A stretch of DNA of 59,134 nucleotides, counting the filler, from Stramenopiles sp. TOSAG23-6 (lineage: Eukaryota): NCBI GenBank assembly GCA_900128565.1. It is 4 parts of 4 records of this genome, joined end to end, with 100 filler letters (N's around TTAATTAATTAA, not from the genome) between each part and the next. Parts side by side here need not be neighbours in the genome. Positions count along the whole stretch, not along the records: positions 44,476 to 59,134 come from LT636136.1; 3 more parts are not named here. One strand, 5' to 3'. The notes beneath the pieces are model-generated. The model ran no database searches, was not told the DNA's origin, and saw only the letters and a program-made list of their open reading frames with translations. Numbering within the stretch: the stretch's first letter is position 1; every line of letters begins with the position of its first letter. Position numbers and translations under genes: made by a program. Positions 7,886 to 59,114 of this stretch are shown in pieces.

Positions 7886-9836
7886 ATGATGAGCTATTTT
7901 GGCCAAAGTTCACAAGATTTTATCCGATGCGGCATGGATTTAGCTTTGGGAGTTGGCATAGGTTGTATCATAGGTTGGTCAACCGCAAGAAATCAACGGC
8001 CGAGTAGTATCATCAAGAAAAGTAGACCCAAAGTCGGTGTGGGAGTTTTTGTAACAAACCCGAAACATCCAGGCTGTATTTTACTAGGTATAAGAAGAGG
8101 GAGTGATGGTTCAGGAACATATGCTTTACCTGGTGGGCATGTAGAGTTTGGTGAAAGTTGGGAGACCACAGCAGCACGAGAAACTCTGGAAGAGACTGGC
8201 CAAAAAATTACATCCATGAGGTGTGTAACTGTCGATAACTCTGTAAAGACAACTGAAAATTATCATTATATTACGGCATTTATGGTCGGTTCTACTTTTG
8301 ACGAACCCATTAACATGGAACCAGATAAGTGTGATGGTTGGGAATGGATCCTATGGAATAGTGAGTACGTTTTTTTTTTTTAATTTTTAATTTTTAATTT
8401 AATTTTTTTTCATACGAAAATTTGTACCTAAACACAAACAAACAAAAAATATTTTTTCACAATACGATAACTTTCCTACTCCTTTATTTAAAGGACTCGA
8501 AACAATTCGTGCTGCAGGTTTTTGTCCGTTTTCAGATCGGTCCAACTGTTCTCACGCACCAACAATAACGAATGACTCATTTACAGAAAAAGATGCAATT
8601 ATAGCTGCTGTTAAAGGGACGCGTGCTAGATATATGTTTTTTTTTTTCAATTTCGAATTTATTTTTTTATAGGAAATTTCGTACCTAACAATGTTTTTNG
8701 ATTTTTTTTGAAATATTTTACCAAAATAAATTAGCCGTGGTCACTGGAGCATCATCTGGAATTGGAAAAGCTTTTGCGGAACAATTAGTGAAATCTGGCT
8801 TTTTTGTTGTGTGTATTGCGAGGAGAGAAAAAATATTAAAACGTTGTTGTGAAGATATGAATAACTCTGGATGGTGTTCTTCTGTTGCTACGACGACAGG
8901 AAGAATACAAATAGGAACACTTCGGCGTCAAAATGGTGCTGGTTTTGCTATTCCATTTCCTGGTGACGTCACTAATCCAGAGTTTATTACACAAATAGGT
9001 AAAAAAATACATGAAATACTAGGTGGTTCTACTTGGTCTCCTCATCAAGGTAGAGGTATTGATGTTCTTATTCAGTCAGCTGGAACATTCATATGGGATA
9101 ATAGTATTGTACCAAAAACAAGCATATGGAATGGCATGAGAAAACAAAAACAACCTCATGAGGAACAATTAAATGTAAATTTCAATGCAAAAAAAAACAT
9201 TTTTGATATTTTAAAACCATATCTTAAAAGTAATACAATAGTAAACCGCTCTCAAAATGAAATTAGCTTTGGTAGTTGTATGTACGTTTTCAAAATTATT
9301 AGTTACATTATTTTTTTTTTATTTTTTTTTTAGTACTTGTAGAAAATTTCATACCTAACAAAACATTTTTACTACAAACGTTTTTTCCATATTGCATGGT
9401 CTTAATTGGATCACATGCTGGAAAATCTAATTTCGTAGAGGAAATAGAAGCGAAAGAAGGAGTTGGAGCAGCTGATAATGAACAGGGTTATATACAAAGC
9501 ATATATGTTTTATTTTTTTTCAAATTCCAATTTTGTTTTTTATAAAAATTTTGTACCTAACAAAAAACAATTTGAAATATTTTTCCAAAATACGTGCAAT
9601 CACTCCACAAATGGTTTTTCTCATTAGAATCTTCGAGTAATGAGCATTACAATACTGATAAAGGTATCAAATTAATTGATACAATTCGTGTTCTTTTGGA
9701 GGAGCCCGAGCTAATCGACACAACTCTTTCACGGAAGGAATTTTCCCATTTTGGTATTGATTGGTCTGATGTACAAAAGCCTATTGAATTTGCAGAAAAT
9801 ATTCTACGTACAAAAGTTTTCCCTTTTATTGAATGA
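7886..9836 (+). CDS. NUDT15/MTH2-like Nudix hydrolase fused to a short-chain dehydrogenase/reductase-like domain, 5 exons
   Basis: Nudix box GGHVEFGESWETTAARETLEETG and EPDKCDGWEW; continuous frame through four introns into RLAVVTGASSGIGKA (SDR TGxxxGxG). Confidence 0.72.
8365..8467 (+). other. Non-canonical intron GT-GA (103 nt) with GA duplicated at both junctions
   Basis: GA|GTACGTTTT...TTTGTACCTAAA...CACAATACGA|T; gives WNSDNFPTPLFKGL. Confidence 0.82.
8632..8731 (+). other. Non-canonical intron AT-AT (100 nt)
   Basis: AT|ATATGTTTT...TTTCGTACCTAAC...CCAAAATAAAT|TA; links the Nudix and SDR parts. Confidence 0.78.
9282..9397 (+). other. Non-canonical intron GT-AT (116 nt)
   Basis: AT|GTACGTTTTC...TTTCATACCTAAC...CCATATTGCAT|G. 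Confidence 0.78.
9503..9595 (+). other. Non-canonical intron AT-GT (93 nt)
   Basis: AT|ATATGTTTT...TTTTGTACCTAAC...CCAAAATACGT|G. Confidence 0.78.
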
Positions 9837-12563: not shown

Positions 12564-14642
12564 CTAATATTTTTTAACCCCCCCCCCATGTATTAGATAT
12601 GTATTTGGAGAGTTACTGCGGACTATTGCATCATTACAATCAGGCTTCCAGCAGTTTTGAATAAATTCGGAGTAAACAAATTTATGATACATTTTTTGTG
12701 TCGTCCTTATATTTTTCTTATCCTGAAAAAAGTAGGAAAAATTAGTGTCAAACGCATTGGTATATCTACCACACCATATCTCCTCAAGCCAGAGTTTCCC
12801 AAAAGATCGAGACAGACGATATATTGCATTTCCATTAATATGATTTATATTAGGGTTAAGGTATAAACTACCTCTATAAATGCTTCCCTTTACCCAAAAT
12901 CGGTCAGATCGGATTTCATTTTCTCCTCTATACGTTTCTCTCAAAATTGCATCAATCCATAGAGGTTGTATAGGTCTTACATCTGGTTCGTAATACATAA
13001 AGTGTGTATGTGTTGGTGAAAATATATCGAATTTGTAAAGGTAAATTTGTATAGTAATTTGGTAAGAAAAAAGAATTCTTAATTAATTTTTGAAAAGATA
13101 CATATTTTTCCCAGAAAAGATTTCTTTCTATTTCTCTACTTGCAATTGATTTTATTTCACCATCTTTAGCATTTACTTCGAAAGCTTGATCTGGATTATT
13201 TTGACCAACTACAAAAATATTAGTTATCTGTTTGCAACATCCTTCAGGATAAGTACATATATTGTGAAAAAATATTTTTTTTGTAAAATTTGTAAGATAC
13301 AAATTTTTTTGAAAAAAAAATAGATTCGAAATTGAAAAAAATAGAACGTACTTTCTTCCTTCAACATATTTGCATGAGTGACAATAATGCGCTGGAAGCA
13401 ATGTCTCCACATTTGTCGTGTCTTCTTAATATATTTTTGAATTTCTTGATATATACCTTTGCTGATTTTTAAGTCGTGGTAAAGCACAAGATCTACAATT
13501 GGACTATTTGTATTATTATATACAGGGTTAGGTAAAGTTAAAGGCAATATAATATCCTGTGTAGTAATATGACGTCTTTTGTTATTGACAATATTTTTTT
13601 CTCTGCATTGTAGTTTGGAGTCAAACATTTGGTTCATTGTTACTTTGGTGCGATTCCACTGCCGAGTAATGAAAGGAATCACAACAGCCAACGAGTGACG
13701 TTGTTTTATTGCATCAGCATAAGGTTTAGGATATATCTTCTTCCGTAAGTAAATTATAGAGCCAAGCATTCCTCTCGCACCATTTCCAGGATTAGACCAA
13801 TACTTTTCGTCGCGGTGAATATCACCGCCAAAACCGTTTATCGTAACCAAAATTGAAAATACGGACTGATCAAACCTATGATTAGAAGAATTTGAACCTG
13901 TTGGTGCAATGCAAGCGAGGCGATGCGCACAGCTGTAGGCCTTTNNNNNNNNNNNNNNNNNNNNNNNNNNNNNNNNNNNTGACTCTCGCGTGTAACCTTG
14001 TAATCCCCCAGCACACATTATTGCGTCACCACCAATGGTTTTAGCATCCGTTTGAAGCTCCAAAATAGTTTTGGGATGTGTCAATTCTAACACCTTGCCA
14101 CAGCACTTCCAGTCTGTGTGCAACCCTTCTTGGGAGACAAACCAGTGACCTTTCGAATGAATTGATGCATCGATTTTAGCCAGTGGTCCTACGACTTCAA
14201 CACCAGAATCCAAAAAAATAATTGAGGGGTATTGTATGAGTGCCATGTGCATTACAATTGGTTTCCAAGCAAAGTTTGACAGGTCACGAACGTGAGGAGG
14301 ATAGTCTTCAAATGGAAATGATTTAAGTATCACCCATTTCCAGAGGTAGCGGATACGAGTCGCTAGTTGAGCTGGGAGTCCCAGGTCATACACAACTACA
14401 GTTCGACCAGGTGCATTTTCATGGATAGACCCTACAAAGTTTTCCAACATATCGTAAAATAACAATTGACTTTCTGTTACATTCCGAGAATTGCTCACCC
14501 CGCAAGCTGTTACGATCTGTGGTGGGTCTATTTTTCCGCTAGCAGCGAACTGTTTGGAAAACCTTTGCGACAATCCCAAACTAAAAATCATACTGGGGAG
14601 CATAAAGAATAATACGAACATTAAAATATTACCACGAGCCAT
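12564..14642 (-). CDS. Secreted/type II membrane protein: DUF1647-like domain + second glycosyltransferase-like domain, 3 exons
   Basis: N-terminal hydrophobic segment; VVYDLGL, FPFEDYPPHV, FAWKPI, NHRFDQS; spliced C-terminus KYTHFMYYEPDVRPIQPLWID...HINGNAIY. Confidence 0.65.
13008..13101 (-). other. Non-canonical intron GT-AT (94 nt) with U12-like donor
   Basis: AT|GTATCTTTT...TTTACCTTTAC...TTCACCAACACAT|; in-frame join KY-THFMYY. Confidence 0.75.
13257..13351 (-). other. Non-canonical intron GT-AT (95 nt)
   Basis: AA|GTACGTTCT...TTTGTATCTTAC...CACAATATAT|. Confidence 0.78.
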
Positions 14643-16111: not shown

Positions 16112-18116
16112 GTGATGGCTCGTAACGAGAGACATGTCTTACCAAGGCAACGTCGAGCACGTAAAACTCGCATATCTCCTCGTATTCCCAAGGGTAAAAG
16201 ATGTCAACCTCCTTCACCAGCAGAAAATAACAATTTGAGTCAAGAGGGATACGTTTTGGACAATCAAAGAGCTGGTCGGTCTGCTTTTCGAAAGCGACAG
16301 GATATGAAAAAGTCTCCTGCTGCTCGTAGAGCTGATAAAACAAATTTATTATTTGATGATAAAGACATATCAGTTTATCAAGCAAATAATAAAAGATATT
16401 TGATTTATCCTGAAGGTAACAGAGAACCAAATGGAGTATTTATCCAAAGTGTACCTTCAGATGGTCAGGACAAATCAGAATCAGAGCGGTGGACAACTAT
16501 AGATGATAATTGTCTTCGAAAAGCTGTCGCATTATATGGCGAGAATTGGCGTAAGATTGCTTCTGAAGTGAATAATAATAAATTCACTGATATTCAGTGT
16601 TTGCATCGATGGCATAGAGTCTTAAGTACACGAAAAAAGACAAACAATATTCAATGGGAACAATATGAAGATGATATACTGCAGGAGTGTCGTAGGAACG
16701 GTATTACTAAATGGTCTTCCATTGCAACATATCTTCAAGGGCGTACGGGTAAGCAATGTAGGGAGCGTTGGGTGAATCATATAAAACATAACACTTCTAC
16801 ATCGAAATCCTGGTCAGACGCCGAAGACAAATCGTTAATTAAAGTGTACAAAACCATTGGAGAAGATTGGATAAATGTGAAAAAGTTTCTTCCTGGTCGG
16901 AATGAAATTGATGTTCAAAATAGGTGGAAGGTTCTTTTGGCGACCAGGAAGGTTAAACCAAGTACATCAGTTGCTTTTCCCGTCGGAATTCAGGCAAACA
17001 TGAAGTCAACAATGTTACGAATGTTACCACCTCAAATGTCAAAGATGGCACAAATGGCACAAATGGCTCAGATGGGATTTGCCAATAATGCTACAATAAT
17101 GAGACAGTCAAATATTCCAGTTGCTCTACAGTTTACGAGTACTCCTGTTACGTTGAATACTGAATCAAAAAATGTTTCAAAAAACGTTTCAAAAAACGTT
17201 TCAAAAAATGTTTCAAAAAATGTTTCAAAAAATATTTCAAAAAATGTTTCAAAAAAACAAAATGCACAAAATAATGTAACAAGTTCGACAGATGCTAATC
17301 TTTTACGCATGGCAGAAGACTTTGTGGACGCTGAATCAAAACGACAGATGCAACATCATAACATTAAATTATCAGATTGTGATAAAGATTTAATGATTCG
17401 AGCTTATATAGCAGGAATGCAATTGAAACCAAATGAGCGAGAAGATACTGTTGGTACAGAAATTGATGGTCTACGATCTCAAAATGATTTGATGTGGGAA
17501 TTTGATGAAAGTGGTTCTTTTACTTTAGATCCTATGGGATTTTCATTCGATACTGAACCATTTGAAGGTTACTTACAATCAAATAACATGCTTTCAAATA
17601 AGGGTAGACCCAATGAAGTAAAGAAAAGTGACACTTTACCCGGTAACCAATTGTCTGAGATTCGTTCGACACCACCACAAAACTCAATCAAAGATAATCA
17701 ACACACTTTAGATCTTGGTGTTGGTTTAACTTGGGGATCTCTTGAATCGAATTTATTAGAAGATGCCAATGAAGACATTCTTGATGGTAATTTGGGAGGG
17801 GTAAACTACTCCATGCTAAACATGTACGTTTTTATCATTAATTTTTTATCTAAATTGTTTTTATTTTTGGTATGAAATTTTGTACCTAACAAAAAAAAAT
17901 TCAAATTTTTAAAATATTTTTTTTCAATACATGTCGCTCGAACACGGTGAATTAAAAAATGTATTACCGAAACTAAATGGAGAGACTTCTGATGCTGAAG
18001 AAATACCCGAAGAACTTCCAATGACCCTACCAGAAGACATAACAAACAACGCCGCCTTGATTGATAATTTAACGGTTGAATTACAAGGCAGAGGGGTACA
18101 TGTAGCAGGCTTTTGA
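16112..18116 (+). CDS. Three-repeat MYB (R1R2R3-like) transcription factor, 2 exons
   Basis: WTTIDDNCLRKAV...QCLHRW, GRTGKQCRERW, PGRNEIDVQNRW. Confidence 0.88.
17164..17255 (+). repeat. 12-nt coding repeat (SKNV)n
   Basis: TCAAAAAAYGTT x7. Confidence 0.9.
17824..17932 (+). other. Non-canonical intron GT-AT (109 nt)
   Basis: AT|GTACGTTTT...TTTTGTACCTAAC...TTCAATACAT|G. Confidence 0.85.
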
Positions 18117-19192: not shown

Positions 19193-20818
19193 ATGCGATA
19201 TTTCGAGATTGACACTAACTTTATTGGTGGAACCATGGCAATTCTTGCTGGAATTTTTTCTAATTTTGGTACTGCAAATCAGAAGCAAACACATTTATGT
19301 AACAATGCTTTACCACGTAGAATGCAAGGTAGTGTCTATTGGAAACAGCGTTGGATTCTAGGTTTATTTTGTATACTCTTTGGTGGTCTATTAGATATGG
19401 GTGCGTTAATGTATGCAACGCAAATAATCGTCGCTGTAGTTGGTGGGGCCGGAACTATTGTATCAAATGTTTTTTTTTGCACAATTTATCTTGGTGAAAA
19501 AATAACTATAAATGACTGTGTTGGTCTTTTTTTGATCCTTATATCAGTGGTTTTGATATCTTTCAGCACCCCTCAAGATAGAGTATATGAACTACATGAT
19601 CTTCAGAAAAACTTTGAAAGAGATGAATTTTGGCAATATTTGATGTACTGTTTCTTACTTTTATCCATGTTGCTTTTGTTATTGATGTATAATCTGTTTT
19701 GTTTTGATAGCAAAGAAAAATTTACGGCATTTCGTGCAAGAAGTATCAGTCCAAATAGAAGTCCAAAAAGTTCACATTTCGTAATGAATCGAGAAGAATA
19801 CACCCATATACCAAGTGCAACAGCTGAAAATAGATCATATCTAACGCAATCACTTAGCAAATTGAATAACTATCGTACAGCAAAAAATAGTACGCGTACT
19901 CTTAATAAAGAAGATCAGATACGGACGAAAGAATTGATGATTCAGACAAATTCTAATGTAGAAGAAATTAAAGAGGAGGACCCTAACCCTAACCCTAAAC
20001 CACTGACCAAAGGACAACTTCAAAAATCATTCGGTACAAAAAAATTTGAAACAATCTACGGATTTGATAAAAATGCTACAAATTCGTCTCTAATAGAAGA
20101 ACAACAATATCAAGACTTTTTAAGTCGTAGTAAAATGAATTCATTAATATATGCCATTATAGCTGGGATAATTGGTTCATTCACTGTTTTATTAGTTAAA
20201 TGTTTTTGTGAAATTGTTGAAGTGTCTTACCTTCCTGGACAAAAAACAAATGTCCATGATACCAAAAACACAATCTTACATTGGCAAGTCATGTTTGTTT
20301 TCATCATTTTCAAAAGAATTCAAAAGAATTCAGTTTTTTTATATTGTACGAAATGTTTTTTTTTNTACTTAATGGATTTCGAATTTAATTTTTTTTCACA
20401 CTACATGTTTTTTGCTATCGGAGGTTTATTTTGTGGTGCTTCACAGATTATACTTATAAATCAAGCTATTGAAATACATGATGCTCTTGGTGTTTTGTCT
20501 ACCTTTCAATTTACATGGATATTATTTAGTACAATTGGAGGAGTCATATTTTATGATTTACAACTTACAAAAAAAGATCAATATTTTTGTATTTTTTCTG
20601 TTATTTTATGTGCAATTTCCGTAACACTATTTGCAAATCGAAAACATGTTTTTGTGAATGATGTGGACAATATGACTATAACTAAAAATAATACAAGAAA
20701 TAGATGTATTAAAGAATTGAGCGTACAATCCAAAACTACTACAGAAAAAAATGCGTTAGAAGTAACAAATATTTTGGGTGATGAAAAATATCTAAATGCA
20801 GTGTATGGAAGTATTTGA
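19193..20818 (+). CDS. NIPA-type magnesium transporter-like (DMT superfamily), with one in-frame intron
   Basis: WILGLFCILFGGLLDMGALMYATQIIVA, YLGEKI, IAGIIGSFTVLLVK, INQAIEIHDA, GGVIFY. Confidence 0.8.
   Translation: MRYFEIDTNFIGGTMAILAGIFSNFGTANQKQTHLCNNALPRRMQGSVYWKQRWILGLFCILFGGLLDMGALMYATQIIVAVVGGAGTIVSNVFFCTIYLGEKITINDCVGLFLILISVVLISFSTPQDRVYELHDLQKNFERDEFWQYLMYCFLLLSMLLLLLMYNLFCFDSKEKFTAFRARSISPNRSPKSSHFVMNREEYTHIPSATAENRSYLTQSLSKLNNYRTAKNSTRTLNKEDQIRTKELMIQTNSNVEEIKEEDPNPNPKPLTKGQLQKSFGTKKFETIYGFDKNATNSSLIEEQQYQDFLSRSKMNSLIYAIIAGIIGSFTVLLVKCFCEIVEVSYLPGQKTNVHDTKNTILHWQVMFVFIIFKRIQKNSVFLYCTKCFFXYLMDFEFNFFSHYMFFAIGGLFCGASQIILINQAIEIHDALGVLSTFQFTWILFSTIGGVIFYDLQLTKKDQYFCIFSVILCAISVTLFANRKHVFVNDVDNMTITKNNTRNRCIKELSVQSKTTTEKNALEVTNILGDEKYLNAVYGSI
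20293..20406 (+). other. Degenerate non-canonical intron GT-AT (114 nt, in frame, stop-free)
   Basis: AT|GTTTGTTTTC...TTGTACGAAAT...TACTTAAT...TTTTCACACTACAT|G. Confidence 0.65.
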
Positions 20819-21666: not shown

Positions 21667-24600
21667 ATGCCGCTTCGCCTCGATAGTATTATTGAGAAAA
21701 AACTTTCTGCGCAGTCCGACCGTGTTAAGTCTGTAGATCTGCACCCAAAGGAACCATGGGCACTTACTGCATTATACAACGGGCATTTGTTTATATGGAA
21801 TTACAACACAGAGCAGCTAGAAAAGTCGTTTGAAGTTGTAGATTTACCTTTGAGATGTGCGAAGTTTATTGCCCGAAAGAGTTGGGTCGTATGCGGAGCT
21901 GATGACATGTTCATACGTGTTTATAACTACAATACACTTGCAAAGATTACAGAATTTGAGGCACATATGGACTATATACGTTATATTGAAGTACACCCGA
22001 CACTCCCATGTTTTCTATCCACTTCAGATGATTTACAGGTGAAACTTTGGGATTGGAGTAAAGATTTTTCGTGTACGAATGTGTATGACGGTCATATTCA
22101 CTACGTTATGATGGCAAAGTTTAACCCAAAAGACGCAAATTATTTCGCCACTGCTTCCCTAGATAAGACTGTAAAAGTATGGTCACTTGGATCATCTACA
22201 CCAAATTATACTCTTGAGGGACATGAACAAGGTGTTAATTGTGTAGCATATTATTCCGGTGGAGATCGACCCCATTTACTTTCTGGGTCTGATGATCAAA
22301 CGGTCCGTGTTTGGGATTATCAAACAAAGTCTTGTGTACAGCAACTTGAGGGTCATACTGCAAATATATCTTCTGTCGCGTATCACCCAATGCTTCCTGT
22401 TATAATTACGGGTAGTGAAGATGGCACAGTGCGTTTATGGCATAATACGACGTATCGTTGTGAAACGACTTTAAATTACGCCATGGAACGTGTATGGGCA
22501 CTTGACGTACAACCGCAGTCACATAATATTGCTATTGGATTTGACGATGGTACTGTTGTAATTAAACTTGGTAATGATAATCCTGTTGTGTCAATGGATA
22601 GAAATGGAAAAATTGTATGGAGCAAAAATTCTGAAATTGAAAGCGCAAACGTAAAAGGGATTGCTGCTGAATANGTACGTTCTTTTTATTTTTTACTTTT
22701 TATTTTTTTATTTATTTTTTTTTATAGTAAATTTTGTACCTAACGAAAATTTAATTTGTTTTTTGAAATATTGTCCCATAATACATAACTGCGCTGATGG
22801 AGATGCACTTCCCGTAACATCGAAACAACTTGGTCACTGCGATTTATTCCCACAGACACTTTTACATAATACGAATGGAAGTTTTGTTGCTGTTTGTGGC
22901 GATGGTGAATATATAATTTACACTGCAAGAAAATTACGAAATAAAGCATTTGGTAATGGACTTGATTTCGTGTGGCGTGATCAGGGCAGTGGTGATTACG
23001 CCGTTCGCGTTTCGTCGTCACGAATTCAGACATTTAAAAATTTCAAAGAACATCGTGTGATTAAGCCCCCAGGAGGTGCAACCGTTATATTTGGTGGTTC
23101 GATGCTAGCTGTAGGAAGCTCTCAAGAATGTGTTTGGTTCTATGACTGGGATACTGTATGTTTTATTTTTTTTTTTAACAAAAAAATCGATTTTTTTTTT
23201 TGAAAATTTTATACCTAACGAATTTTTTTTTCAAATATTTTTCCAAAATACATGGCGCTCTTGTCCAACAAATTGACGTTGCCCCAACAGCAGCATATTG
23301 GTCTGACTCAGCAGAATTAGTGACATTATGTTGTGAAGATACATATTATGTACTAAACTGTAATAGAGAACAAATATCTCAGGCTTTAGCAAATGGTGAA
23401 GCTGATGAAGACGGTGTGGACGGTGCATTTGAGCTATTACATGAAATCAGTGATACAGTCAAATCAGGTCTTTGGGTGGGAGATTGTTTCCTATATACTG
23501 TTGAAGGCAAATTCAATTATTATGTTGGTGGTCAAGTTATGTCCCTTGGGCACATTGATACGTCACTGTTCCTTTTAAATTACGTGGCCAAAGAAGATCG
23601 TGTTTTCTTATGTGATAAAAATCGGAAAATTGTGAGTTATTCTATATTACGGTCAACATTGGAATATCAGACAGCTGTGGTGCGAGAAGAATTCGAAACT
23701 GCAACAAGTATTCTTCCATCTATTCCAAAAGAGCAACATAATAAAATTGCAAAGTTTTTGGAGTCTCAAGGATTTAAGACTTTGGCTTTGAGTGTTGCCA
23801 CTGATCCTGATTTACGTTTTGAATTGGCTGTAGAATTAAATCAGTTAAATGTTGCAGCTGATATAATGAAAAATATTGTGGATAAAAATGAAAAAGTATT
23901 GGAACGGCATGATAATGCGAGTGGTATTTCTGCAGATTACGAATTGAAGTGGAAAAAACTAGGCGATTTAGCCTTAGCCCAATGTGATTTGGACCTAGCT
24001 CAGACTTGTATATCTCGAGCTGAAGATGTTTCAGCGCAGTTATTAATGTCAACTTCTATGGGCGATGCAGCTGGACTTGAAAATGCAGCAAAGCTCGCAG
24101 TTGCAAAAGGACGTACTAATGTTGCTTTTATTGCCTTCTTTTTATTGGGTAAAATAGAAAGTTGTTTAAAACTATTAATTGATGCTGATCGTGTTCCTGA
24201 AGCAGCTTTCATGGCTAGAACGTATTTACCCTCTGAAGTTCCAAAATTAATTGGGTTATGGCGTGAAAATCTTCAAAAAGTATCAAAGAGAGCTGCAGAG
24301 AGTTTAGCGGATCCATCGGAATATGCGAATCTGTTCCCTGATATGAAGCTAGCACTTAAAGCTGAAGAAATGTTTAAACAAAGACGTGGAGAAGCACCTG
24401 TTCCAGCATCGAAATATCCTGAAGCTATGCATGAAACTGATCTAGATTTGATTGCTATTATGCGAGATATGGAAGCGAATGGTGGTGACATTGAACGTGC
24501 ACTAGCAGATAATGGCGCTGGTGATGATATGAATGAAAACAATGATGAAGTAGTAAATACTCAAAATAAAGAAGAACTCGAGTTAGATGAAGCATACGAG

Positions 24601-31056: not shown

Positions 31057-33749
31057 ATGCAGAGTATTACTCTTATAATACTGTTTTTCATACTTTCAAC
31101 CAACGTAACTGTTGTATATACGTCTTTGACTACACGTCCGGATGCAATAAAACCGTATTTATTTCATGGTTGTTTTGATATATTACCTGACAACCTCCTA
31201 TCTAAGATTATTCATGTCTCTACAACAATTGATGCCTCTATTGCTCAATGTGAAATAGTAGCAAGGTTATCCCTTTTTGAAGAGATACATTCTAGATTTG
31301 AATTCAACAATGATACCGTACATACATTCTTTGTTATACACAAAAATAAAAATGAAACGAATCAATTTCATTGTAGTTGGGGATTTCAAAATACCGAGGA
31401 ACATGACACATTTTATCCTATAATGAATAATAACCCTAACCCTACCCATACGCCACAAAAATGGGGGTCATATGTTTCATCTACATTTGAATATTCATCC
31501 AATCTATCAAAGAATCAAAAAATAAATCGAGATTTTTGTGATACTTTATATGATATCACTAATTTTGAAAATACAACGAACCCTAACCCTACATTTGAAA
31601 ATGCAACAAATCATCATAAAAAAAAAACGATACAAAAAAAAAACATATATAGTGTATATACGCTGATTCCTAGTGTACAACATGTAAGTTTCTATTATAT
31701 TGTAATGATTTATATATCAACACAAGTTTTAACAAAATCAATACAAAATATTTTTTTTTTCTACAATTTTTTCTTTTCGTACAAAATTTTATACCTAAAA
31801 AAAAATCGAAAAAATCGAAAAAAATCGAAAAATTAAAAAAAAAAAAAATGAAATATTTTCTTACAATATTTCTACAACTTCTCAAAAAGGCACAAAGTAA
31901 TTATCATTATGTAGGCTGCTTTGCAGATCGTACACCACATGCCGTAGTTAAATGGTACAAAAAAATGACATTGACGAATTGTGCAGGAATTGCATTCTCA
32001 ACACGAAATCTCTGGTTTGTGCTTGAATTTCCACAAGGTTATGGTCTTGGTCTTGAGGGTCATGCTAATTGTGGAATGGGTGGTACATACATGGCAGATG
32101 GTGAATCTATTCCAGTATGTTCTATGTAGTGTTTTGATTATTATTCCAAATTTTTTTCAAATTTTTTTTCAAATTTTTTTTTGTACCTAACAATTTTTTT
32201 TCAAATTTTTTTTTCTTCAATTTTAAATTTCAATTTTCAATTTTTTTTTTTTGTAGAAAATTCTGTATATACAAATGTTTTTTTTTTCTTTGGTGTATAT
32301 ATTGTACAACACATGATATATATTGTGCAAGTAAAAAAGATAAAAATGGACATGCCTTAGGTGGACCGGGTGTCATGTCTGTGTTTGTCTATAGTAAAAA
32401 TTCAATTTCTTTAGGTACGAAAATAAGTACAAAACAAAATATACAAAATTTAGCATCATTATATACTGAATATACTACACTACAAATATTGGAACCACAG
32501 AACCCTAACCCTACTATAAACAGTCCAGATTCTTTTATGGACAACAATGATGATTTTGTGTCAACACGAAATAATGGAAAAAAAAAAAATTCGAAAATAA
32601 AAAATGATTCCAAAATTGTACCTACAAAAAAAAAAAAAAAAATTTGAAAATTTTGAAAATTTTGAAAATCCAGACAATCAACTACAAAAATGTATACAAA
32701 AATGTGTTGAAGTCCGTTCATACAGACGATGTATAGATTTGACAGATCATTCAGGATTTCGTGTTACACTGAGGATTAAAGCGTTTGAGCCTGTTTCATT
32801 TGCTTTGTCACAAACATGTTTATATTATTTTCGAAACAGAAAAAAAGTGGATGAATGTATACAGTTGATATATAAGCTACTTCAAGAAAAAAATGGGGGA
32901 TTTATCAAAAATACAAAAAATAAAAAAAATAAAAAAAATACAAAAAATACAAAAAATACAAAAAATACAAAAAATACAAAACAATCGGATTATATACAAT
33001 TTGAGTGTGTGTGCAATGGTCATTCTGAAACATCTGAGTTGTCGTGTAATGGTCGAGATGTATGTTTTATTTTTTTTTTTAGATTTTTTTTGAATTTTTT
33101 TATAGTAAATTTTGTACCTAAACAAATTTTTTTTTTTTTTTTTTTTATAGTAAATTTTGTACCTAAACAAAAAAAAATTGAATTTTTTTTTTTTTGAAAT
33201 ATTTTTTTGAAAATACATGCTGTTGAATTTGCAATTTGGAATACTGATCGAGAAAAACAATTTGAAATGTATAATTGTTTTAATGATGATTCTTTTAGAG
33301 ATGATTTTCAGAAAATAATTGGTCAATATATACAGAATAATTCAACAAAAAAACATATTATTTTTAATGATGATAATAATAATAATAATAATAGTAATAC
33401 TACTACTACTACTACTACTAATAATAATACGAATAATAATAATAATAATGATGATACTACATGCAACCCTAACCCTAATTTAAATAATGATAATACTACT
33501 ACAAATGAAATTATCTCAAAATGGAGAAAAAAATGGTTATTACAAAATACAAAACAAAAAGTAACAAATAATGAATCTTGTATTTTATTTCAACGATATA
33601 ATGGAATATCACCTCTTTTTGCTTTACACGCTGATGTTGTCGTGTTTAATACACAAGTTTGTTTTTCTTTATACATTTCAAATTTCATTTTTTTTTTTTT
33701 TTATAGTTTTTTATAAAAATTTTGTACCTAACGAAAAAAAAAATGACAT

Positions 33750-33799
<50 letters not shown>

Positions 33800-35186
33800 G
33801 TTTTCATAGGAAATTTTGTACCTAACAAAAATTAATTTTTTTTTTTCAATTTTTTTTTTAAACAATAATGACTGGTACTTGGTCTCCTTGGCTGCCATGT
33901 CGAAAATATGTCGTTGGTGTGAATCCTTTTATATTCTTTAAACGATGGCATTATGCTTCAGAGTTATGGTTACGTGTTACAAAATCTTCTATACAAAATT
34001 TGGTACAAAATGTAAAAAATGTAAAAAATATTGAAAATATTGAAAATATATTACAAAATTCAGAAACTGTTGAACATCATCAATTTAGTACTAGTAATAC
34101 TCGTACTTTTACATCTTTATCAGTGTTACATCAAATGAATCATAATAATAATACTATGAGTGAGATTATATTTACAGTTACAGATGAAGAAATTATTGAA
34201 ATCGGTAACCCTAACCCTAAAAAAATGAAAAAAAATGAAAAAAAAATGAAAAAAAATGAAAAAAAAAATGAAAAAAAAAATGAAAAAATTTTTCAAAATG
34301 TTGACGTTTGTACATTTATTTCCATGTGCGAGCCATCACGTTTAGCATATATTACATCATTAGAAGCTGTTGGATTAAAAATGCATCATTATGGAAAATG
34401 TAATCGAAATGTAAATCTAAACCCTAACCCTACTACGAATGGTAAAACCCCTAACCCTAATGTAAAAAGTGAAAAAGAAGGAAATTCGTATTTGAATGCA
34501 TTTCAACAAAAAATGTCAATTATGTCAAAATATCGATATTCTATTGTATGTACGTTTTCACAATATGAATTTATTAATTTATTTATTTTTTTTCATAGGA
34601 AATGTTGTACCTAACGATTTTTTCATGATTTCGTGTTTTTTTCACAATACATTTGAATCCATTGAAAAATTTGATTACATGTCTGAAAAAATTTGGCATG
34701 CTTTTGCTGCTGATACTATACCTATTTATAGAGGAGCACCAAATATTGAAGAATTTTTACCTTGTACGTTTTTTTTATCTTTTTAATGAAAAATCATTTA
34801 AAAAAAAAAAAAATTCAAAAAAAATTTAAAATTTTTTTTTTGTTGTTGTTGTACCAAATATAATAATAGTATTCAATAAGTCCAAGTATTTTTTTTTCTT
34901 CAAATATATATCATTTGAAATTACATTGTTTTTTCAATTTTAATTTTAATTTTTTTTTTTTTTAGTACGAATTTTCGTACCTAACAAGTTCAATATGTTT
35001 ATATTTTTTTTTTAGTACGAATTTTCGTACCTAACAAGTTCAATATATAGATTATATTTTCACATTATAAATGCACAAATTGTGTCTTATTTGTGAAAGA
35101 TTTTACATCTCCTGAGGCTTTAGCATCAGCTATTTCATTTAGAGTAGCCAAAATATTACATAGAGAAAATGAATTTATTACTTTTC

Positions 35187-35829: not shown

Positions 35830-35871
<42 letters not shown>

Positions 35872-44331: not shown

Positions 44332-44476
44332 GTACGTTTTTTTTTTTTTTTTTTTTAAAATTTTTTTTTTTTTTTNNNNNNNNNNNNNNNNNNNNNNNNN
44401 NNNNNNNNNNNNNNNNNNNTTAATTAATTAANNNNNNNNNNNNNNNNNNNNNNNNNNNNNNNNNNNNNNNNNNNNA

Positions 44477-51583: not shown

Positions 51584-51808
51584 CGTTTTACTCAATGCTA
51601 TATTCAATGAGGCCACTTTTTAAGTGTTGATGTCAACATCAGTATGCATCATTGATTTTCGACCGATTTTGACCAATTTCTAATTTGTTCTGAAAGTGAA
51701 ACAAGCTAAATTTTGACACGTGTGGTGGCAATGCGCAGCAATGTGACACAAACCTTTCAGAAAGACTTTTGACTCTCTTCGTTGTATAATATAGTTTATT
51801 AAACCACG

Positions 51809-53203
51809 ATGATTACCCGTGCTCTTAAACATGTAGCCCAAAGGTGTCATTTCAACTCTCGTGGCTTTGCATCTGCATCAGCTGCCGAAATTGAATTCGA
51901 TTTGGGAACCCCGTACAAGACTCATCTCTGCGACGGCCCAGCAACCAACACGGCAATGTCTTCGCGAGAGGAATTGCTTGGTTATTTGAAAGAAATGAAT
52001 GTTATTCGTCGAATGGAAGTTGCTTGTGATAATGAATACAAGACGCGTAATATTCGTGGGTTTTGCCATTTATATGATGGCCAAGAAGCCTGTGCTGTCG
52101 GTACAGAAGCTGCGATGAGTAGAGACGATGACTGGATTACTTCCTACCGTTGCCATGCGGCTTCCTACCTTAGAGGTGACTCTGTGGAGTCTATTATGGC
52201 CGAGCAGTTTGGTTTCGAGAGTGGAGTAGTTAAAGGCAAAGGAGGATCCATGCACATGTACAACAAAGAGACAAACTTTTGGGGAGGGGCTGCCATTGTT
52301 GGTGCTCAGGTTCCAATTGGTGCAGGTTTGGCATTCGCTAATAAATACAACGCAAACCATGGTGGTGAAAGGATGAATGTATCAATGGCATTTTATGGCG
52401 ACGGCGCTGCTAACCAGGGCCAATGTTGGGAAGCAGCAAATATGGCTCTTCTTTGGAAGCTTCCAGCTCTATTTGTAATCGAAAATAACATGTATGGGAT
52501 GGGCACTTCTGTTGAACGTCATAGTGGTCTCACAGAATATTATAAACAGGGTGGTGTTGTTATTCCAGGCATTCAAGTAGATGGTATGGATGTTTTAGCA
52601 GTCCGCGAATGCTTCAAGTATGCGCGTGAATGGGCTGCTACAGGTAATGGTCCAATGTTTATTGAGGTGAAGACTTATCGTTACCATGGCCATTCCATGT
52701 ACGTTTTATTTTTTTTTAATTTCGAATTTATTTTTTTTGTACGAAATTTCGTACCTAACAAAAAAAATAAAAAAAAATATTTTTTCACAATACATGTCGG
52801 ATCCTGGATTAACATATCGAGATCGCGACGAAGTGTCAGATATGAGAAGCACTCGAGATTGTATAGCTAAAGTAAAAGACTATTTGATAGGTGCAGATCT
52901 TGCAGATGAAGCTGAATGTAAAGCTATTGAAAAAGATGCTCGTAAAGAAGTAAAAGAGGCTGTGAAAGCCGCAAAAGCGGGTAAAGAGTTGCCACTACAT
53001 GTACGTTTCTATTATTTCAATTTCAAATTTATTTGCTTTGTACGAAATTTTGTACCTAACGATTTTTTATCCAAAAAAAAAAAATTTTTACAATACATGA
53101 AATGTACACTGATATATTCCATAAGGAGGTTCCAGAGTTTATTCGAGGTGCTCAAATGGAAACAAGTGCATACAAAGGTGTTTCATCACTACAACAACAA
53201 TAG
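51809..53203 (+). CDS. PDHA1: Mitochondrial pyruvate dehydrogenase E1 alpha (exons 51809-52698, 52796-53000, 53099-53203)
   Basis: IRGFCHLYDGQEA, GKGGSMHMY, YGDGAANQGQ, spliced TYRYHGHSMSDPG. Confidence 0.97.
52699..52795 (+). other. Non-canonical intron GT-AT (97 nt) inside YHGHSMSDPG
   Basis: AT|GTACGTTTT...GTACGAAATTTCGTACCTAAC...CACAATACAT|G. Confidence 0.93.
53001..53098 (+). other. Non-canonical intron GT-AT (98 nt)
   Basis: AT|GTACGTTTC...GTACGAAATTTTGTACCTAAC...TTACAATACAT|; gives LHEMYTDIF. Confidence 0.9.
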
Positions 53204-53450: not shown

Positions 53451-55253
53451 TCAATGATTATTCATCCACGGCTTTGCAGTACTAGGAGAATTCTTCTTCA
53501 AAAATGTTGCAGATCCTCTTTCACTTAAAGGTAAATCAGTAGATCTTTTCCCCCATTTTCGCAACGGACCTGCGACAACTTCAGTAGAAGCAGGTAATCT
53601 TTCACTTCCATCAGAAGTGTATAATGCATTTTTATTATTTGTATTTGTAGAAATAGATCTTTCAGAGTTCGCATTTCCTGAAAAATAATCTACACTCCGA
53701 ATACTCGTTTGAGATTGAAATGTGTACTCATTGTTTTGCCTTGTAGTATCACGAAAAGAACTACCACCATTACGACCACCCTGTAATGGCGGCAATTGTG
53801 TCCTTGGTGATTGTCGGCTTTCAAGTAACGCTTGATTTATTAATTCAATTTTGTCAGATTTTAAACGAGTAAGAAGAATTTCTACTAACTTTTCTCTACC
53901 TATCAAGCTTAAGTCTGAAAAAGATGTTGGTGGTCCTTTTCTTCGATCAGGCAAGAGAGTTTTAGCAGAAGGTGCAAAATCACTTTCCGAAAAAAGTTCA
54001 TCAGGCCTTTCCGTCATTTGATGTCTTACATCTTCAGCTGCAGCTAACAACATAGCACATGTATTGCAAAAAAAAAAAAAATCATAAAATAATCGTTAGG
54101 TACAGAATTTGGTACAAAACAAAATTTGAAATTGAAATGATAAAAACGTACACAATTCGTCATGAGTCTCAAAATTTTGTACATTACATGCTTTGACCCG
54201 ATTCATTTCTTTTCGTAAGCGATGATTATTTTCTTGTGTACGTGCTAATCGAGACTCAAGAGCTTCCACTTTAACATTGACAGTTTGAAGTGCTTCGTCC
54301 GTACTTAATAACTCTTCACTCAATTTCTCGTCTCTGTCGAGCATTGATTTAGTAATATCCCGATTTTTATCATCTTTTACTTGAATTTTTTCGTTCAATC
54401 GTTTCAACAAACGTTGATAAATTTGAGTTTTCTTTGCAAATTCCAATTGCATTTGTTTATGCATATCAATTTCTTGTTGTTTTCTTCGACTTTCTTCTTT
54501 CAACGATTGAGTCTGTCGCATTAATTTTTCCATGGCTTTTGTTTGATATTTTAACTCTTTGCTCATTCTTGAATTTTCTTGTATTGCATCTCTAGTAGTA
54601 GAGTGAAGCATTAATTGACTGTGTTGGTATGCATTTTGTTTCGTTTCTAAAATCTTTTGCTCCATTTCCTCCTGTAACTTATTTTTTTCTGAAACTCGAC
54701 GTTTATCCTGTTGGACTAATTGTTTATTGGTGTCTTCACGAGCATTTTGCAATTCAGCTTCCATTTTACTCATTTTCAATCCGAAATCCTCTTTCAGCTC
54801 AATAAATTGTTTTAAGCTTTCTAACTCCTGATTTTTCTTTTGTAATCCAAGTTGCATAGTTGCAATAACTTCGTTTAATTCCTTAACTTTTTTGTTATAG
54901 GTTTGAGTTGATTCTTCGTCTGCCATTTCTTTTTCAGTCTTCATATTGATTAAACCCTTTTCCAATCTTTCAATCTCATTGTAATTGTGATCTAACTTTT
55001 GATTAAGAAAAAATTGTATATCTGCATGTCTCTTTTGAGCGTCAGCGATATTTTTTTCATGTTTCGTATTGCTTATAGTGAGTTGTTCCCTCTTTTTTTC
55101 TGAGTCCTCTAACTTGAATTTTAGGTCTTCAATGGTAAACTGTAATTTTATTAGCTCAGCATCTGGATGAGGCTCACTTGGAGCACCATCGCCTGCATCA
55201 CCCTCTTTCTCGGCTTCTTTGTCTTTCTTTTTCTTTCCCTTTTTCTTTGCCAT
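53451..55253 (-). CDS. Coiled-coil cilia/flagella-associated protein (CFAP157-like), 2 exons
   Basis: MAKKKGKKK N-terminus, long coiled coil, TTRDAIQEN, LSLIGREKLVEILL. Confidence 0.55.
54059..54151 (-). other. Non-canonical intron GT-AT (93 nt)
   Basis: GT|GTACGTTTT...TTCTGTACCTAAC...TGCAATACAT|. Confidence 0.85.
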
Positions 55254-55622
55254 CTTAAATATAAAGTGATAAAGTTATATTATTTAAATATCTATCTTTT
55301 ATTGACATGTCCAAGGAGAAGGGAAGGTCAAAAAGTAACCGTAAAGGGAACAAACCTGTTCGACACAAATCGTAGATATTCTCTTGAATAATTCTTCCAC
55401 CTATATAGCCAGGCGTTTGTTTTTAACTAGTGTCATTGCTGGGACATTAACTAATTTATCTGCGAATGAACAACAAATTCGGGATGTATTCCAACAAAAA
55501 TGCAAAAAGACTGTATAGATTGAAAACTGAAAGTATTGGAAAAATTTGATTGCTTTATAAAAAATAATGTCACTGTTCTTGTATAGTCAAGAGTTTCATA
55601 AAGAATATGCATTGTTCAAATT

Positions 55623-56401: not shown

Positions 56402-57205
56402 ATGGAGAACAAGTCACCCCCAGCCACCAACCCTAAGTTTGAGGAACTTTTCCGNNNNNNNNNNNNNNNNNNNNNNNNNNNNNNNNNNNNNNNNNNNNNN
56501 NACAAGTTGAAGGTCTTCAGGCTATTCTAGTAAGTACTTGTGAAGGCGTTCCACTCATCAAAGTGATTGGCGAGGACAACCCTGGAGTAGAACCACAAAT
56601 GATAGCACATGCCGAAACTAAATTTTCATATATATTTGCTGTTGCAGCATCCCAAGCTGCAAATTTACGCTTAGGTAACCTTAATTCGATTACTAGGTAG
56701 GTGTCATGTTTTTATTGTGAAACTGTATTTATTTATACTCGGCAACATTCTTCAAAAGTTAACTTTTTCTTTTTATTGATGTATCTTTTTTTTCTACAGC
56801 TACTATGAAAACAATATACTTATGCATATAAATCAAGGTCCTGGGTTATCAACAGTAAATAGTGGAGGTGATGCAGCTCCTTTATTCGTTTCTGGTGGTG
56901 ATGAACAAAACATTTCTGAAGAAAAATCAATGCGTCATGAAACGAACTCTCCACGTCAGAGTCTTCTAAAAATGCAAAATCCCGATCAAAATGGGAAAAA
57001 TGATAATAGAGATCTGGGTGTATCACATAGCGCATCTTTAGACTGGATTGTGGAGGATAGCTGTGGATCTATTGTAATTTCACTTATAGCTAAGAGAAAC
57101 TGTGAAATTTCATTGCTTCACAAAATAGCACCACATCTTCGAACAGCACTATCTGGTCTTTCTAAGAGTGTTCAAATATTGCTTGACGCCGATCAACGAC
57201 AGTAA
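56402..57205 (+). CDS. LAMTOR3: Ragulator subunit LAMTOR3 (MP1)-like, 2 exons, spans a gap
   Basis: QVEGLQAILVSTCEGVPLIKV...FAVAASQAANLRLGNLNSITSYY...IVISLIA, resembling LAMTOR3 SVEGLHAIVVSDRDGVPVIKV. Confidence 0.78.
56697..56799 (+). other. Canonical GT-AG intron (103 nt)
   Basis: AG|GTAGGT...polypyrimidine TTTCTACAG|C; in frame; no GTACCTAAC motif. Confidence 0.82.
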
Positions 57206-57323: not shown

Positions 57324-59055
57324 TCAATTTGTTTTACCTGGCATTCGCTCTCGGTTAGCAGTTGAACTTGAACCCATTCTGTGATCAGTTGAAGATACCG
57401 CTTCTTTAATTTGGTTCTCTGTTCCAGCCCAGTCTGCATAGTCTGCTTTTTCACTTGCTTCGTATTCATCTATCAGTCCTTGTACAACTGCGCGGCAGTC
57501 GTCAAATTCAGATTCGCTGAATTCAAATTCATCATTCTCTGTATAATTTTTCAAGAAAGCACCACGTTTCCGCAGCTTATCATACATATTCATATTTCTC
57601 TTGAATAGCTGAGCTATGCTACTGTGATTAGCTATCATCAAACCACTCACTTTGTGAGAAGACTCGACATAAGGCGACTTTTTAGATAAAGCGACCTGGA
57701 TGCTAGCTGGACCCCAAGGAATGACGTATTGTGAAAAAATATTTTTTTTTTGGTTTAAAAAAATTCGTTAGGTACAAAATTTTCATAGTAAAAAAATGTA
57801 GGTGAAACATTCAATTTTGAAAACCTACAATCTCGCAAGTTTTCGCTCACGTATGCGTTGAAGTGCTTTATGGACTTGTGTTGGATCAACATCACCCTGA
57901 ATGATATTCAGTATGGAAATGTAACACCCTCTCTTAGTATTCGTCGAAACCATGTATTGTGAAAAAATATTTTTTTTTGAATAAAAAAATCGTTAGGTAC
58001 AAAATTTGGTACGAAAAAAAAATTCGAAATTCAAAAAAATAAAACATACTTTATCCCACTCGGTTGATGTTGTAATAGTCGCCGCATAACGTCTAACACT
58101 GTTGTTTTTCGCACAGCACTGGTCTTTGATTCAATTGTAAGAGGAGTGTACCCAGTCATTAAGAAATGACATCGTGGTGTTGGAATTAAAGAAGCAATGA
58201 GACCGACAAGATCATTATTCATATAACCAGGATATCTCAAAGTAGTTGTACTAGCAGCCATGTATTTTGAAAAAATATTTCAAAAAAAAATCGTTAGGTA
58301 CAAAATTTCGTACGAAAAATGAATTCGAAATTGAAAAAAAATAAAACATACATGACAGTCGCTACAAGACTATTCAGTTGATTGACTGTTGGATTGGCGA
58401 TATGTAACCGATCTGTGGCAATCCGATTGAGTGCGGTATTATCTAATACCATGACACAATCAGCATTCAAAGTGAGACGTTTGAGGGTTAACATGGAGTT
58501 ATACGGCTGTACGACGACATCGGCATCATCTTGATTAGGAAATACAGAATACGTTTGAATTAGTTTCTTTGGAAAATGGTCATTGAGTTTTTCCAAAAGA
58601 TAAGATCCCATACCAGAACCTGTCCCACCAGCAATTGAATGAGACAGAACAAATCCCTCCAAACTTTCACTACCATCGGCCTCTCGGTTGATCATGTCCA
58701 TTAATTCTTCATGAACACCCTCGGCTTGGTGATAACCACTTGCCCAGTTATTTCCTGCACCACCACCGTCAGTAGACATGAAAATATTTTCAGGATTGAA
58801 AAACTTCTGGTATTGACCATTTTGAATTCCTTTTACAACACGAGGTTCTAAATCCATCATAAGTGCACGTGGAATGTAGTGGTCGTCGTCAGCTTGGTAA
58901 AAAAATACGTCTTTACGATCCATTCCTAATTGTGCAAAGTCCTCAAGCGATCCATCTGGACGAATACCATGCTCATTACAGAGCTGCTCCCAGAATGACA
59001 TTCCAATTTGATTACCGCATTGGCCTACCTGCAAAGTGATAATTTCGCGAGGCAT
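57324..59055 (-). CDS. TUBG1: Gamma-tubulin (exons 59055-58352, 58259-58050, 57951-57829, 57723-57324)
   Basis: [66 protein letters not shown]. Confidence 0.98.
57724..57828 (-). other. Non-canonical intron GT-GT (105 nt)
   Basis: TT|GTAGGTTTTC...TTTTGTACCTAAC...CACAATACGT|C; gives the conserved F of FIPWGP. Confidence 0.9.
57952..58049 (-). other. Non-canonical intron GT-AT (98 nt)
   Basis: AA|GTATGTTTT...TCGTACCAAATTTTGTACCTAAC...CACAATACAT|G. Confidence 0.88.
58260..58351 (-). other. Non-canonical intron GT-AT (92 nt)
   Basis: AT|GTATGTTTT...TTCGTACGAAATTTTGTACCTAAC...CAAAATACAT|G; restores [13 protein letters not shown]. Confidence 0.93.
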
Positions 59056-59114
59056 GATGACTTTTCAACAGAAAATTTTCTCCGAAAGACTTTATTTAAA
59101 GGAGAGAGCAAATA

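Follow-up and report, generated by a model that had tools for sequence, protein, structure and literature searches.

Introners, transposon-derived families of introns, have been described from Micromonas, Aureococcus and many aquatic eukaryotes (PMC9860276, PMC12130899; Huff et al. 2016 via PMC7789003), and repeated introns with unusual borders have been reported from Amoebophrya and Fritillaria borealis. Here, we analysed a window of 59,134 nt (the whole stretch of DNA, joined from four parts) of Stramenopiles sp. TOSAG23-6 (assembly GCA_900128565.1), in which an extended branch-like motif preceded by a palindrome had been flagged at positions 52738-52760 and ascribed to a variant small nuclear RNA (snRNA) or binding factor; we refer to this as the original prediction. 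On balance, we consider the flagged block to be the branch-site region of a short, multi-copy, introner-like spliceosomal intron. The family to which this intron belongs is probably transposon-derived, and a variant snRNA is unnecessary for its introns.

Like the introners of other marine protists (PMC9860276), the family consists of many similar, short, non-coding copies in unrelated genes, at least 26 of them in sense orientation in 12 reading frames of the window. Terminal inverted repeats of small size and duplicated flanks would be further shared traits, and as in introners, the excised segment would comprise the element plus part of the duplicated target. However, described introner families use familiar splice sites, whereas none of the 26 copies ends in AG, and the duplication observed here is not separable from a preference for AT|G, as target or in the exon, that the copies have in common. 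For 3′ sites, a 2025 survey of introners gives, in the part on which we draw, AG and AC only, and families with unfamiliar sites were discarded there unless supported by RNA (PMC12130899). Surveys relying on annotated or canonical introns would miss the family. The elements of Amoebophrya are likewise repeated non-GT/AG introns with inverted-repeat ends and direct repeats of 3-5 nt over their borders, on which standard gene prediction fails; they differ in their highly variable borders, mostly AG-A(N), and in inverted repeats of 8-20 nt that form hairpins, and the same source, as far as covered here, states that no U1 was found (PMC7789003). Compared to these, the family analysed here has a conserved 5′ GTAYGT, a terminal repeat of only ~5 nt and a strong branch motif, so that only its 3′ end is unusual. 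Non-AG 3′ ends on a genome scale are known from Fritillaria borealis, whose introns are thought to originate from small inverted-repeat transposons (PMC11282704, 10.1101/2025.08.15.670264); these are mostly AG-AC/AG-AT and thus non-canonical at the 5′ end too, whereas the 5′ GT is kept in 19 of 23 aligned copies here. With the near-invariant extended signals of budding-yeast introns the family shares a conserved 5′ site and branch motif, a branch tens of nucleotides from the 3′ end and a short length. The yeast-type signals are GTATGT and TACTAAC; here, GTACCTAAC replaces TACTAAC, with CTAAC in common and the two preceding bases different, and the 3′ end is AAUAYAU instead of YAG.

The flagged block reads TGTACGAAATTTCGTACCTAACA (23 nt), in agreement with the consensus originally given, and lies in T-rich sequence inside a 97-nt intron (52699-52795, + strand) of a pyruvate dehydrogenase E1-alpha gene. 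The frame flanking this intron matches Pfam PF00676 (E1_dh, dehydrogenase E1 domain; E = 5e-81). Its signals are as follows.

52699..52707, + strand: 5′ splice site GTACGTTTT; in the alignment of 23 copies (alignment A1), G1 is kept in 20/23, T2 in 22/23, and A3, G5, T6 and T7 in 23/23 each
52739..52754, + strand: perfect 16-nt palindrome GTACGAAATTTCGTAC (left arm 52739-52746, right arm 52747-52754)
52751..52759, + strand: branch-like 9-mer GTACCTAAC; the A at 52758, 37 nt before the 3′ end, is the predicted branch point
52780..52795, + strand: 3′ block TTTTTTCACAATACAT and intron end; the last 16 alignment columns are gapless in 23/23 copies

A family profile built from 15 well-formed copies returned 81 matches in the window at E ≤ 10 and 33 at E < 1e-3, 23 of the latter spanning the model from position ≤12 to ≥85. 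For the set of 23 copies used throughout, one window-edge copy (3-96) was dropped and 22675-22786 was added from a scan of both ends only; three diverged copies (20293-20406, 13008-13101 and 33060-33218) bring the total to 26. The ten other matches at E < 1e-3 are partial and stand outside the set: three are cut by assembly gaps or the window edge, and the remaining ones come from 29-35 kb and 42-43 kb, where the DNA is very AT-rich. Copies are 91-159 nt long (median 98 nt), with a median pairwise identity of 72% (range 52-91%). Three signals are common to them: a 5′ GTAYGTTTT, the block AAATTTTGTACCTAAC located 32-45 nt from the 3′ end, and a 3′ CA(C/A)AATAYAT. In full, the consensus runs from GTAYGTTTT through a T-rich part with AATTTCGAATT to (C/T)GTACGAAATTTTGTACCTAAC(G/A)A, followed by a mostly T-rich run and GAAATATTTTTTCA(C/A)AATAYAT.

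All 23 full-length copies, although picked blind to reading frames, are found in sense orientation within a long open frame once excised, which argues for removal from RNA and not from DNA. If left in place, every one of them leads to a stop codon within 0-381 nt. Excision of the 23 copies yields 11 open frames.

2506-4848: open frame after excision
5330-7663: open frame after excision
7859-9833: open frame after excision
12955-14648: open frame after excision
16112-18113: open frame after excision
21640-24762: open frame after excision
33862-34783: open frame after excision
35242-35883: open frame after excision
51803-53200: open frame after excision
53454-55274: open frame after excision
57327-59064: open frame after excision

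A blind rule, which joins the longest open frame on either side of a copy and should succeed in one third of cases by chance, was in phase for 21 of 23 copies (p = 1e-8) and for 24 of 26 when the three diverged copies are included (p = 5e-10). The two misses are 53001-53098, which is settled by homology, and 34550-34652, a near tie. Intron lengths show no multiple-of-three bias. Four junctions are fixed exactly by homology, namely both in pyruvate dehydrogenase and the first and third in gamma-tubulin. The joined pyruvate dehydrogenase protein reads ...YRYHGHSM|SDPGLTYRDR... and ...ELPLH|EMYTDIF..., as it does in the relatives P0002, P0003 and P0005. The gamma-tubulin exons map onto the solved human chain as residues 1-235, the split codon M236, 237 to ~305, ~308-347, the split codon TT|C (F348) and finally 349-452; this mapping makes junctions 1 and 3 exact, and junction 2 is placed to within one residue, in a variable loop. 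In these intron-like elements, the flagged block sits where a branch site is expected, so that its proposed placement holds. The individual copies are listed below, where 'frame' denotes that the reading frame is restored upon excision.

52699..52795, + strand: focal intron, 97 nt, GT...AT, pyruvate dehydrogenase E1-alpha gene; junction identical in P0002, P0003 and P0005
53001..53098, + strand: family intron, pyruvate dehydrogenase E1-alpha gene; motif 53052-53060; junction PLH|EMYTDIF as in P0002, P0003 and P0005
58260..58351, - strand: gamma-tubulin family intron 1; motif 58293-58301; exon mapping around split codon M236
57952..58049, - strand: gamma-tubulin family intron 2; no AT upstream, ends GT...AT (or TA...TG)
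57724..57828, - strand: gamma-tubulin family intron 3; GTAGGT start, ...ACGT end (neither AT nor AG); exon 3 stops at residue 347, split TT|C = F348, exon 4 from I349
2847..2939, - strand: family intron; motif 2880-2888; frame
3097..3189, - strand: family intron; motif 3128-3136; frame
6059..6150, + strand: diverged family intron; ATATGT start, motif decayed to GTGTGTAAC (6108-6116); frame
6244..6351, + strand: family intron; motif 6301-6309; AG 12-13 nt past the predicted branch A; frame
6747..6855, + strand: family intron; motif 6804-6812; internal AG; frame
7001..7091, + strand: family intron; motif 7051-7059; frame
7256..7347, + strand: family intron; motif 7306-7314; frame
8365..8467, + strand: family intron; motif GTACCTAAAC; ...ACGA end, GA also closes the upstream exon; frame
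8632..8731, + strand: family intron; ATATGT start; motif 8681-8689; frame
9282..9397, + strand: family intron; motif ATACCTAAC (9351-9359); frame
9503..9595, + strand: family intron; ATATGT start, ...ACGT end; motif 9553-9561; frame
13008..13101, - strand: old diverged family intron; GTATCT start, motif region decayed to TTACCTTTAC; frame-compatible, 108/147 open codons flanking
13257..13351, - strand: family intron; motif GTATCTTAC (13292-13300); frame
17824..17932, + strand: family intron, Myb-domain gene; motif 17882-17890; frame
20293..20406, + strand: diverged family intron; GTTTGT start, motif region nTACTTAAT; frame-compatible, 370/136 open codons flanking
22675..22786, + strand: family intron, coatomer (COPA/B-type domains) gene; motif 22736-22744; frame
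23156..23253, + strand: family intron, same coatomer gene as 22675..22786; motif ATACCTAAC (23211-23219); frame
33060..33218, + strand: family intron, motif block duplicated (two TATAGTAAATTTTGTACCTAAAC); frame-compatible, 153/165 open codons flanking
34550..34652, + strand: family intron; motif 34607-34615; narrow miss of the longest-frame rule, 43 vs 58 codons
35366..35473, + strand: family intron; GAATGT start; motif 35421-35429; frame
54059..54151, - strand: family intron; motif 54095-54103; frame

The branch-like motif itself is strongly enriched. GTACCTAAC occurs 32 times on both strands of the 59 kb against 0.21 expected occurrences, a number reached in 0 of 100 shuffles, and the 16-mer GTACGAAATTTYGTAC gives 41 matches with ≤2 mismatches against 0.16 expected (palindromic sites being counted on both strands). 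In contrast, bare CTAAC is not enriched (93 vs 85 expected), indicating that the repeated unit is the extended block, which a repeated element carries. When candidates were selected by their ends alone and thus blind to the motif, 13 of the 16 family copies among 19 candidates contained the exact 9-mer. GTACCTAAC is the best-conserved internal block and intact in 18 of 23 aligned copies. Its columns G75, C78, C79 and C83 are the top internal ones (2.6-3.2 bits, kept in 21-22 of 23 copies), equalled among the columns of the 5′ site only by G1 and G5. In 20 of 23 copies CTAAC is unaltered, with 3 mismatches among its 115 cells, and the GTAC of the right palindrome arm has 5 mismatches in 92 cells compared to 30 in 92 for that of the left arm. 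The claim of a 'most conserved internal block' is therefore borne out for the right half of the flagged sequence but not for the left half, (C/T)GTACG, the columns of which are kept in 11-20 of 23 copies; the flagged observation is real, its left half overstated. Likewise, the title motif TTTTGTACCTAAC is valid as a family consensus, whereas the focal copy reads TTTCGTACCTAAC. The distance claimed was about 30-45 nt upstream of the 3′ end; in our analysis, the predicted branch A is 32-45 nt away (median 37, standard deviation 4.1), and the end of the 9-mer lies 27-51 nt from the intron end across all 26 copies. For U2-type introns, a branch-to-3′-end distance of 32-45 nt is within the usual range.

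Two features of a U2-type intron are found in the family, a 5′ site with GT and a hexamer complementary to U1 and U6 (A3, G5 and T6 are kept in 23/23 copies) and a branch motif of the YTRAY kind located tens of nucleotides upstream of the 3′ end. The core CCTAAC agrees at 5 of 6 positions with the general branch consensus AYTRAY (as given in 10.1101/2022.06.08.495308), so that standard U2 could pair with it. Even the most diverged working copies retain a yUnAy-like core (CTTAC, GTAAC, CTTTAC, CTTAAT). We thus propose that the element is transcribed inside its host gene, always in sense, and that its 5′ GUAYGU would serve as a strong 5′ splice site of the standard kind, which U1 and subsequently U6 recognise. 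Within GUACCUAAC, the CUAAC core would pair with the branch-binding sequence of U2 and leave the penultimate A bulged, while the neighbouring GUAC and AAAUUUU may provide extra contacts with SF1/BBP, SF3 proteins or additional U2 pairs; if these contacts strengthen recognition, this would explain why both are kept as well as the core. After the branch motif and a mostly T-rich stretch, the 3′ cut would fall two bases past AAUAY, irrespective of what those bases are. The left palindrome arm would be a relic of the ancestral mobile element and dispensable for splicing.

Several points weigh against this reading. That the spliceosome removes the introns through a lariat, which A serves as branch point and which factors bind is deduced from DNA sequence. 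As no copy ends in AG, a defining feature of U2-type introns is absent and the machinery must differ somewhere. The conserved stretch of ~16-18 nt (AAATTTTGTACCTAACRA) is longer than canonical U2 pairing accounts for, and in pairing by hand with GUAGUA, which we take to be the standard U2 sequence, the C before CUAAC stays bulged or mismatched. Detection was biased towards intact motifs (two decayed copies reached no better than E = 0.42 and E = 18), and the difference between the two GTAC arms (Fisher p = 3e-6) was calculated on cells that are not independent, the copies being related by descent and falling into subfamilies. Finally, all introns seen in the window belong to one family, so that family heritage and a general splicing requirement are not fully separable.

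Part of this would be accommodated by the original prediction of a variant U2-like (or U12-like) snRNA, the branch-binding loop of which, e.g. GUAGGUAC, pairs fully with GUACCUAAC. Such an snRNA would pair with the C left out by the standard sequence, it would account for the GTAC beside the core being conserved like the core itself (5/92 vs 3/115 mismatches), and snRNAs that co-evolve with altered signals have a precedent in the U1 of Entamoeba, the recognition sequence of which is changed, as described in 10.1101/2022.06.08.495308. However, working copies tolerate ATAC (two copies), GTAT, GTGT, loss of GT, and the cores CTTAC, GTAAC, CTTTAC and CTTAAT, and the ordinary consensus is already matched by the core alone. 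For the best-studied non-canonical system, U2AF proteins and snRNA modification are credited with the change, and not the snRNA sequence (10.1101/2025.08.15.670264). We found no snRNA genes or other RNA families in the window at Rfam gathering scores or E ≤ 1, and no tRNA either. A variant snRNA appears quite improbable to us.

The U12-like version of this idea fails on spacing and 5′ site. U12-type introns begin with [AG]TATCCTT and have a TCCTTAAC-like branch site ~10-15 nt from the 3′ end. The family resembles these minor introns, of which PMC11282704 gives a general description, in its long conserved 5′ and branch motifs, in the ...TAAC ending of the branch motif and in AT...AC borders that are formally possible in 11 of 26 copies, and TACCTAAC matches TCCTTAAC at 6 of 8 positions. 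In contrast to U12-type introns, ATCC follows the first two bases in none of the copies, the distance from predicted branch to 3′ end is 32-45 nt, and an AT...AC reading is impossible for 15 of 26 copies.

Alternatively, a sequence-specific RNA-binding protein, either a diverged SF1/BBP or a lineage-specific factor, might read AAAUUUUGUACCUAAC and recruit U2, in which case the block would be bound by protein more than paired with an snRNA. SF1/BBP reads the 7-nt UACUAAC, the stretch conserved here exceeds the U2 duplex in length, and its A and T columns (68-74) retain their base in 19-23 of 23 copies. These columns carry little information at 82% A+T, though, and diverged copies that lack the full block are functional or, at the least, retained in essential genes. 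We regard such a dedicated reader as unlikely.

With respect to the palindrome, the focal copy deviates from what had been claimed. It carries TTTTGTACGAAA in place of TTTCGTACGAAA, a 12-mer that alignment A1 contains in 3 of 23 copies, and its palindrome is the gap-free 16-mer GTACGAAATTTCGTAC, the proposed spacer T being absent. The full palindromic 16-mer is present in 5 of 23 copies; the GTAC of the left arm is intact in 9 and that of the right arm in 19 of 23. At least ten variants of the left arm can be read off alignment A1, pointing to several independent changes. The left arm hence decays in inserted copies, the opposite of what is predicted for a maintained palindromic binding site. 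This bears on the idea that palindrome and motif form a subterminal DNA site for a transposase or mobilising protein and owe their conservation, rather than to splicing, to recent copying from master elements. The resemblance of the family to a small non-autonomous mobile element with terminal inverted repeat and flank duplication speaks for such a site, as do the overlapping GTAC-centred palindromes, which would suit a dimeric DNA binder, and the occurrence of the perfect 16-nt palindrome on its own at 39255-39270 in intergenic DNA. Against it, only the right arm is kept in inserted copies, the copies are with a median identity of 72% too old for age to explain the 96-97% retention of the 9-mer, and the 43 frames of the window that were scanned contain no transposase domain. 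As an explanation of the present conservation, we consider a DNA site very unlikely; DNA-binding and branch-site roles could coexist, and the DNA-binding reading of the palindrome may describe the past of the element rather than its present. The lone intergenic palindrome (region 39255-39282) has more GTAC words beside it and is devoid of CTAAC and of intron ends; together with the decay of the left arm in genes, it fits a relic of the ancestral mobile element. Separately, an isolated TTTCGTACCTAACAATTTTCG, 21 nt of the family block, is located at 1001-1021 (- strand), antisense in the + frame 1-2175, with the rest of the element absent.

The palindrome had also been described as foldable, and a hairpin in the RNA, presenting or masking the branch site, would be conceivable, as a stem of 5-6 bp is predicted in some copies. 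Across copies, there is no covariation: 72.5% of the cells of a six-pair stem are paired compared to 72.2% in shuffles, compensatory changes amount to 0, and the two closing G-C pairs are disrupted in 12 and 11 of the 23 copies, respectively. Folding z-scores of eight introns range from -1.93 to +0.23 relative to shuffled sequence, i.e. folding is not significant. In the absence of both compensatory changes and significant folding, the hairpin is not maintained, and we attach hardly any credence to it.

We return to the U2-type intron reading and its most unusual aspect, the 3′ end. The terminal dinucleotide of the 23 aligned copies is AT in 20, GT in two and GA in one, and 20 of all 26 copies have GT...AT borders; one of the GT ends, that of gamma-tubulin intron 3, is fixed by homology. 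The last 16 alignment columns are gapless whereas the motif-to-end distance spans 13 nt, which ties the 3′ cut to the CA(C/A)AATAY block and not to the distance from the motif. Hence, of the earlier proposal that the 3′ site is chosen by distance plus motif, a fixed offset from this block stands and a fixed distance from the branch motif does not. An AG 12-13 nt past the predicted branch point is present in two copies (6244-6351 and 6747-6855). Its use in 6747-6855 would shift the frame; 6244-6351 is ambiguous, since its AG would give a 78-nt GT-AG intron that stays in frame. A reading with AT...AC borders is open to only 11 of 26 copies and closed to the other 15; one gamma-tubulin intron is without an upstream AT. 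A broader scenario, although doubtful, is that the mobile family became the (near) sole intron type and the splicing machinery co-evolved with it, such that AAAUUUUGUACCUAAC is read by an altered U2 loop or SF1-like protein and the 3′ cut is set by a two-base ruler from AAUAY instead of AG. If spliced as we infer, the introns would have textbook 5′ and branch signals without a 3′ AG, the cut being placed by a nearby sequence block. This would set the choice of the 3′ site apart from all other steps of intron recognition more clearly than in Fritillaria and Amoebophrya, in which both ends vary, and provide a natural system for studying how the second splicing step finds its site.

With respect to a probable mobile origin, the two ends of the element make up a short inverted repeat (ATGTA...TACAT), with complementarity at 4.8 of 6 positions. 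Complementarity within copies (4.78/6) equals that of a cross-copy control (4.79/6); intron-end pairing as a guide for splicing was accordingly rejected, the complementarity being a matter of the consensus only. The structure of euglenid-type nonconventional introns is not seen either, with ~5 bp at the ends, no copy-specific pairing and no significant folding. Flank duplications measure 0-7 nt with a mean of 3.0, compared to 2.5 with the flanks of other copies and 0.7 at random exon sites, so that most of the duplication is explained by the shared AT|G context. In one copy, GA is duplicated rather than AT, a hint that the two final bases of the intron are copied from the target site. No Pfam transposase domain was detected in the 43 frames scanned in the window. 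For a relative (P0008, 83% identity), the gene model breaks off behind ...PGIQV and closes with the tail SQSTFHFFFTF; back-inferred from the protein, this might be a weak sign that a family-like 5′ end at another position is read through.

The non-AG 3′ end and a public gene model that reads through the introns are more surprising than the flagged motif. The best protein match to the first pyruvate dehydrogenase exon is EukProt handle GSMAST32.ASY1.ANO1.1986.1 (P0001); other named matches are stramenopiles, e.g. Hondaea, Pythium and diatoms. From these matches alone, we regard the host as a MAST-3-like stramenopile. The P0001 model of 51803-53200 (+ strand) translates both introns, has a frameshifted unrelated tail and is without 26 residues near position 90. 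It is 100% identical to the 42-aa read-through translation of the window intron 53001-53098, from which we conclude that it derives from the window sequence. A protein-database search with this 42-aa read-through for other mis-annotated copies returned only the same-locus model (2 candidates). Predicted proteomes of such genomes are probably corrupted wherever the family sits. The literature, supplements aside, yielded no description of the family, of introns with GT...AT borders from comparable organisms or of a signalling role of GTACCTAAC in splicing. In the portions covered, the single-cell genome paper on MAST mentions introns only in its methods (PMC5778133), and a further study gives intron content only as a proportion (10.64898/2026.04.17.719054).

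Beyond the 26 copies, sequence features point to additional probable introns of this kind, with degraded or duplicated blocks, in AT-rich genes that lack known domains, e.g. GTAAGT...ATACCTAAAAA...ACAATAT.

31685-31870, + strand: probable intron region
32117-32315, + strand: probable intron region
34764-35253, + strand: probable intron region, with a tandem duplicate of AGTACGAATTTTCGTACCTAAC at 34956-35064

When every intron with open frames on both sides was permitted, scanning produced 5077 combinations and was uninformative. At 27495-27706 (- strand), a GTATGT...CAG intron is out of frame, and a family-like ...AAATATAT end is in frame, as expected in one third of cases by chance. NUDIX and short-chain dehydrogenase domains share the single frame 7859-9833 (+ strand) once four introns are removed; this may be a fused gene or two adjacent genes.

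The joins at 14784-14883, 29590-29689 and 44376-44475 each consist of 44 N, TTAATTAATTAA and another 44 N and have the look of an artificial linker with stops in six frames, so that gene order across them may not be real. Other N runs are located at 13945-13979, 40823-40970, 42172-42205 and 56455-56501. Gaps often start or stop inside family copies (44332-44375; 29535-29589, - strand; 42078-42169, - strand): a 5′ end GTACGTTTT enters N at 44376, and at 29589 and 42171 the N runs give way to 3′ halves. Low-complexity repeated introns seem to break the assembly. Telomere-like two-unit repeats (TTAGGG/CCCTAA) are present in intergenic AT-rich DNA at 39208-39222, 39453-39465, ~40496-40510, 41075-41090 and 42915-42930. 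One of them directly follows the stop of the frame ending at 39205, and these repeats may be a promoter or terminator motif.

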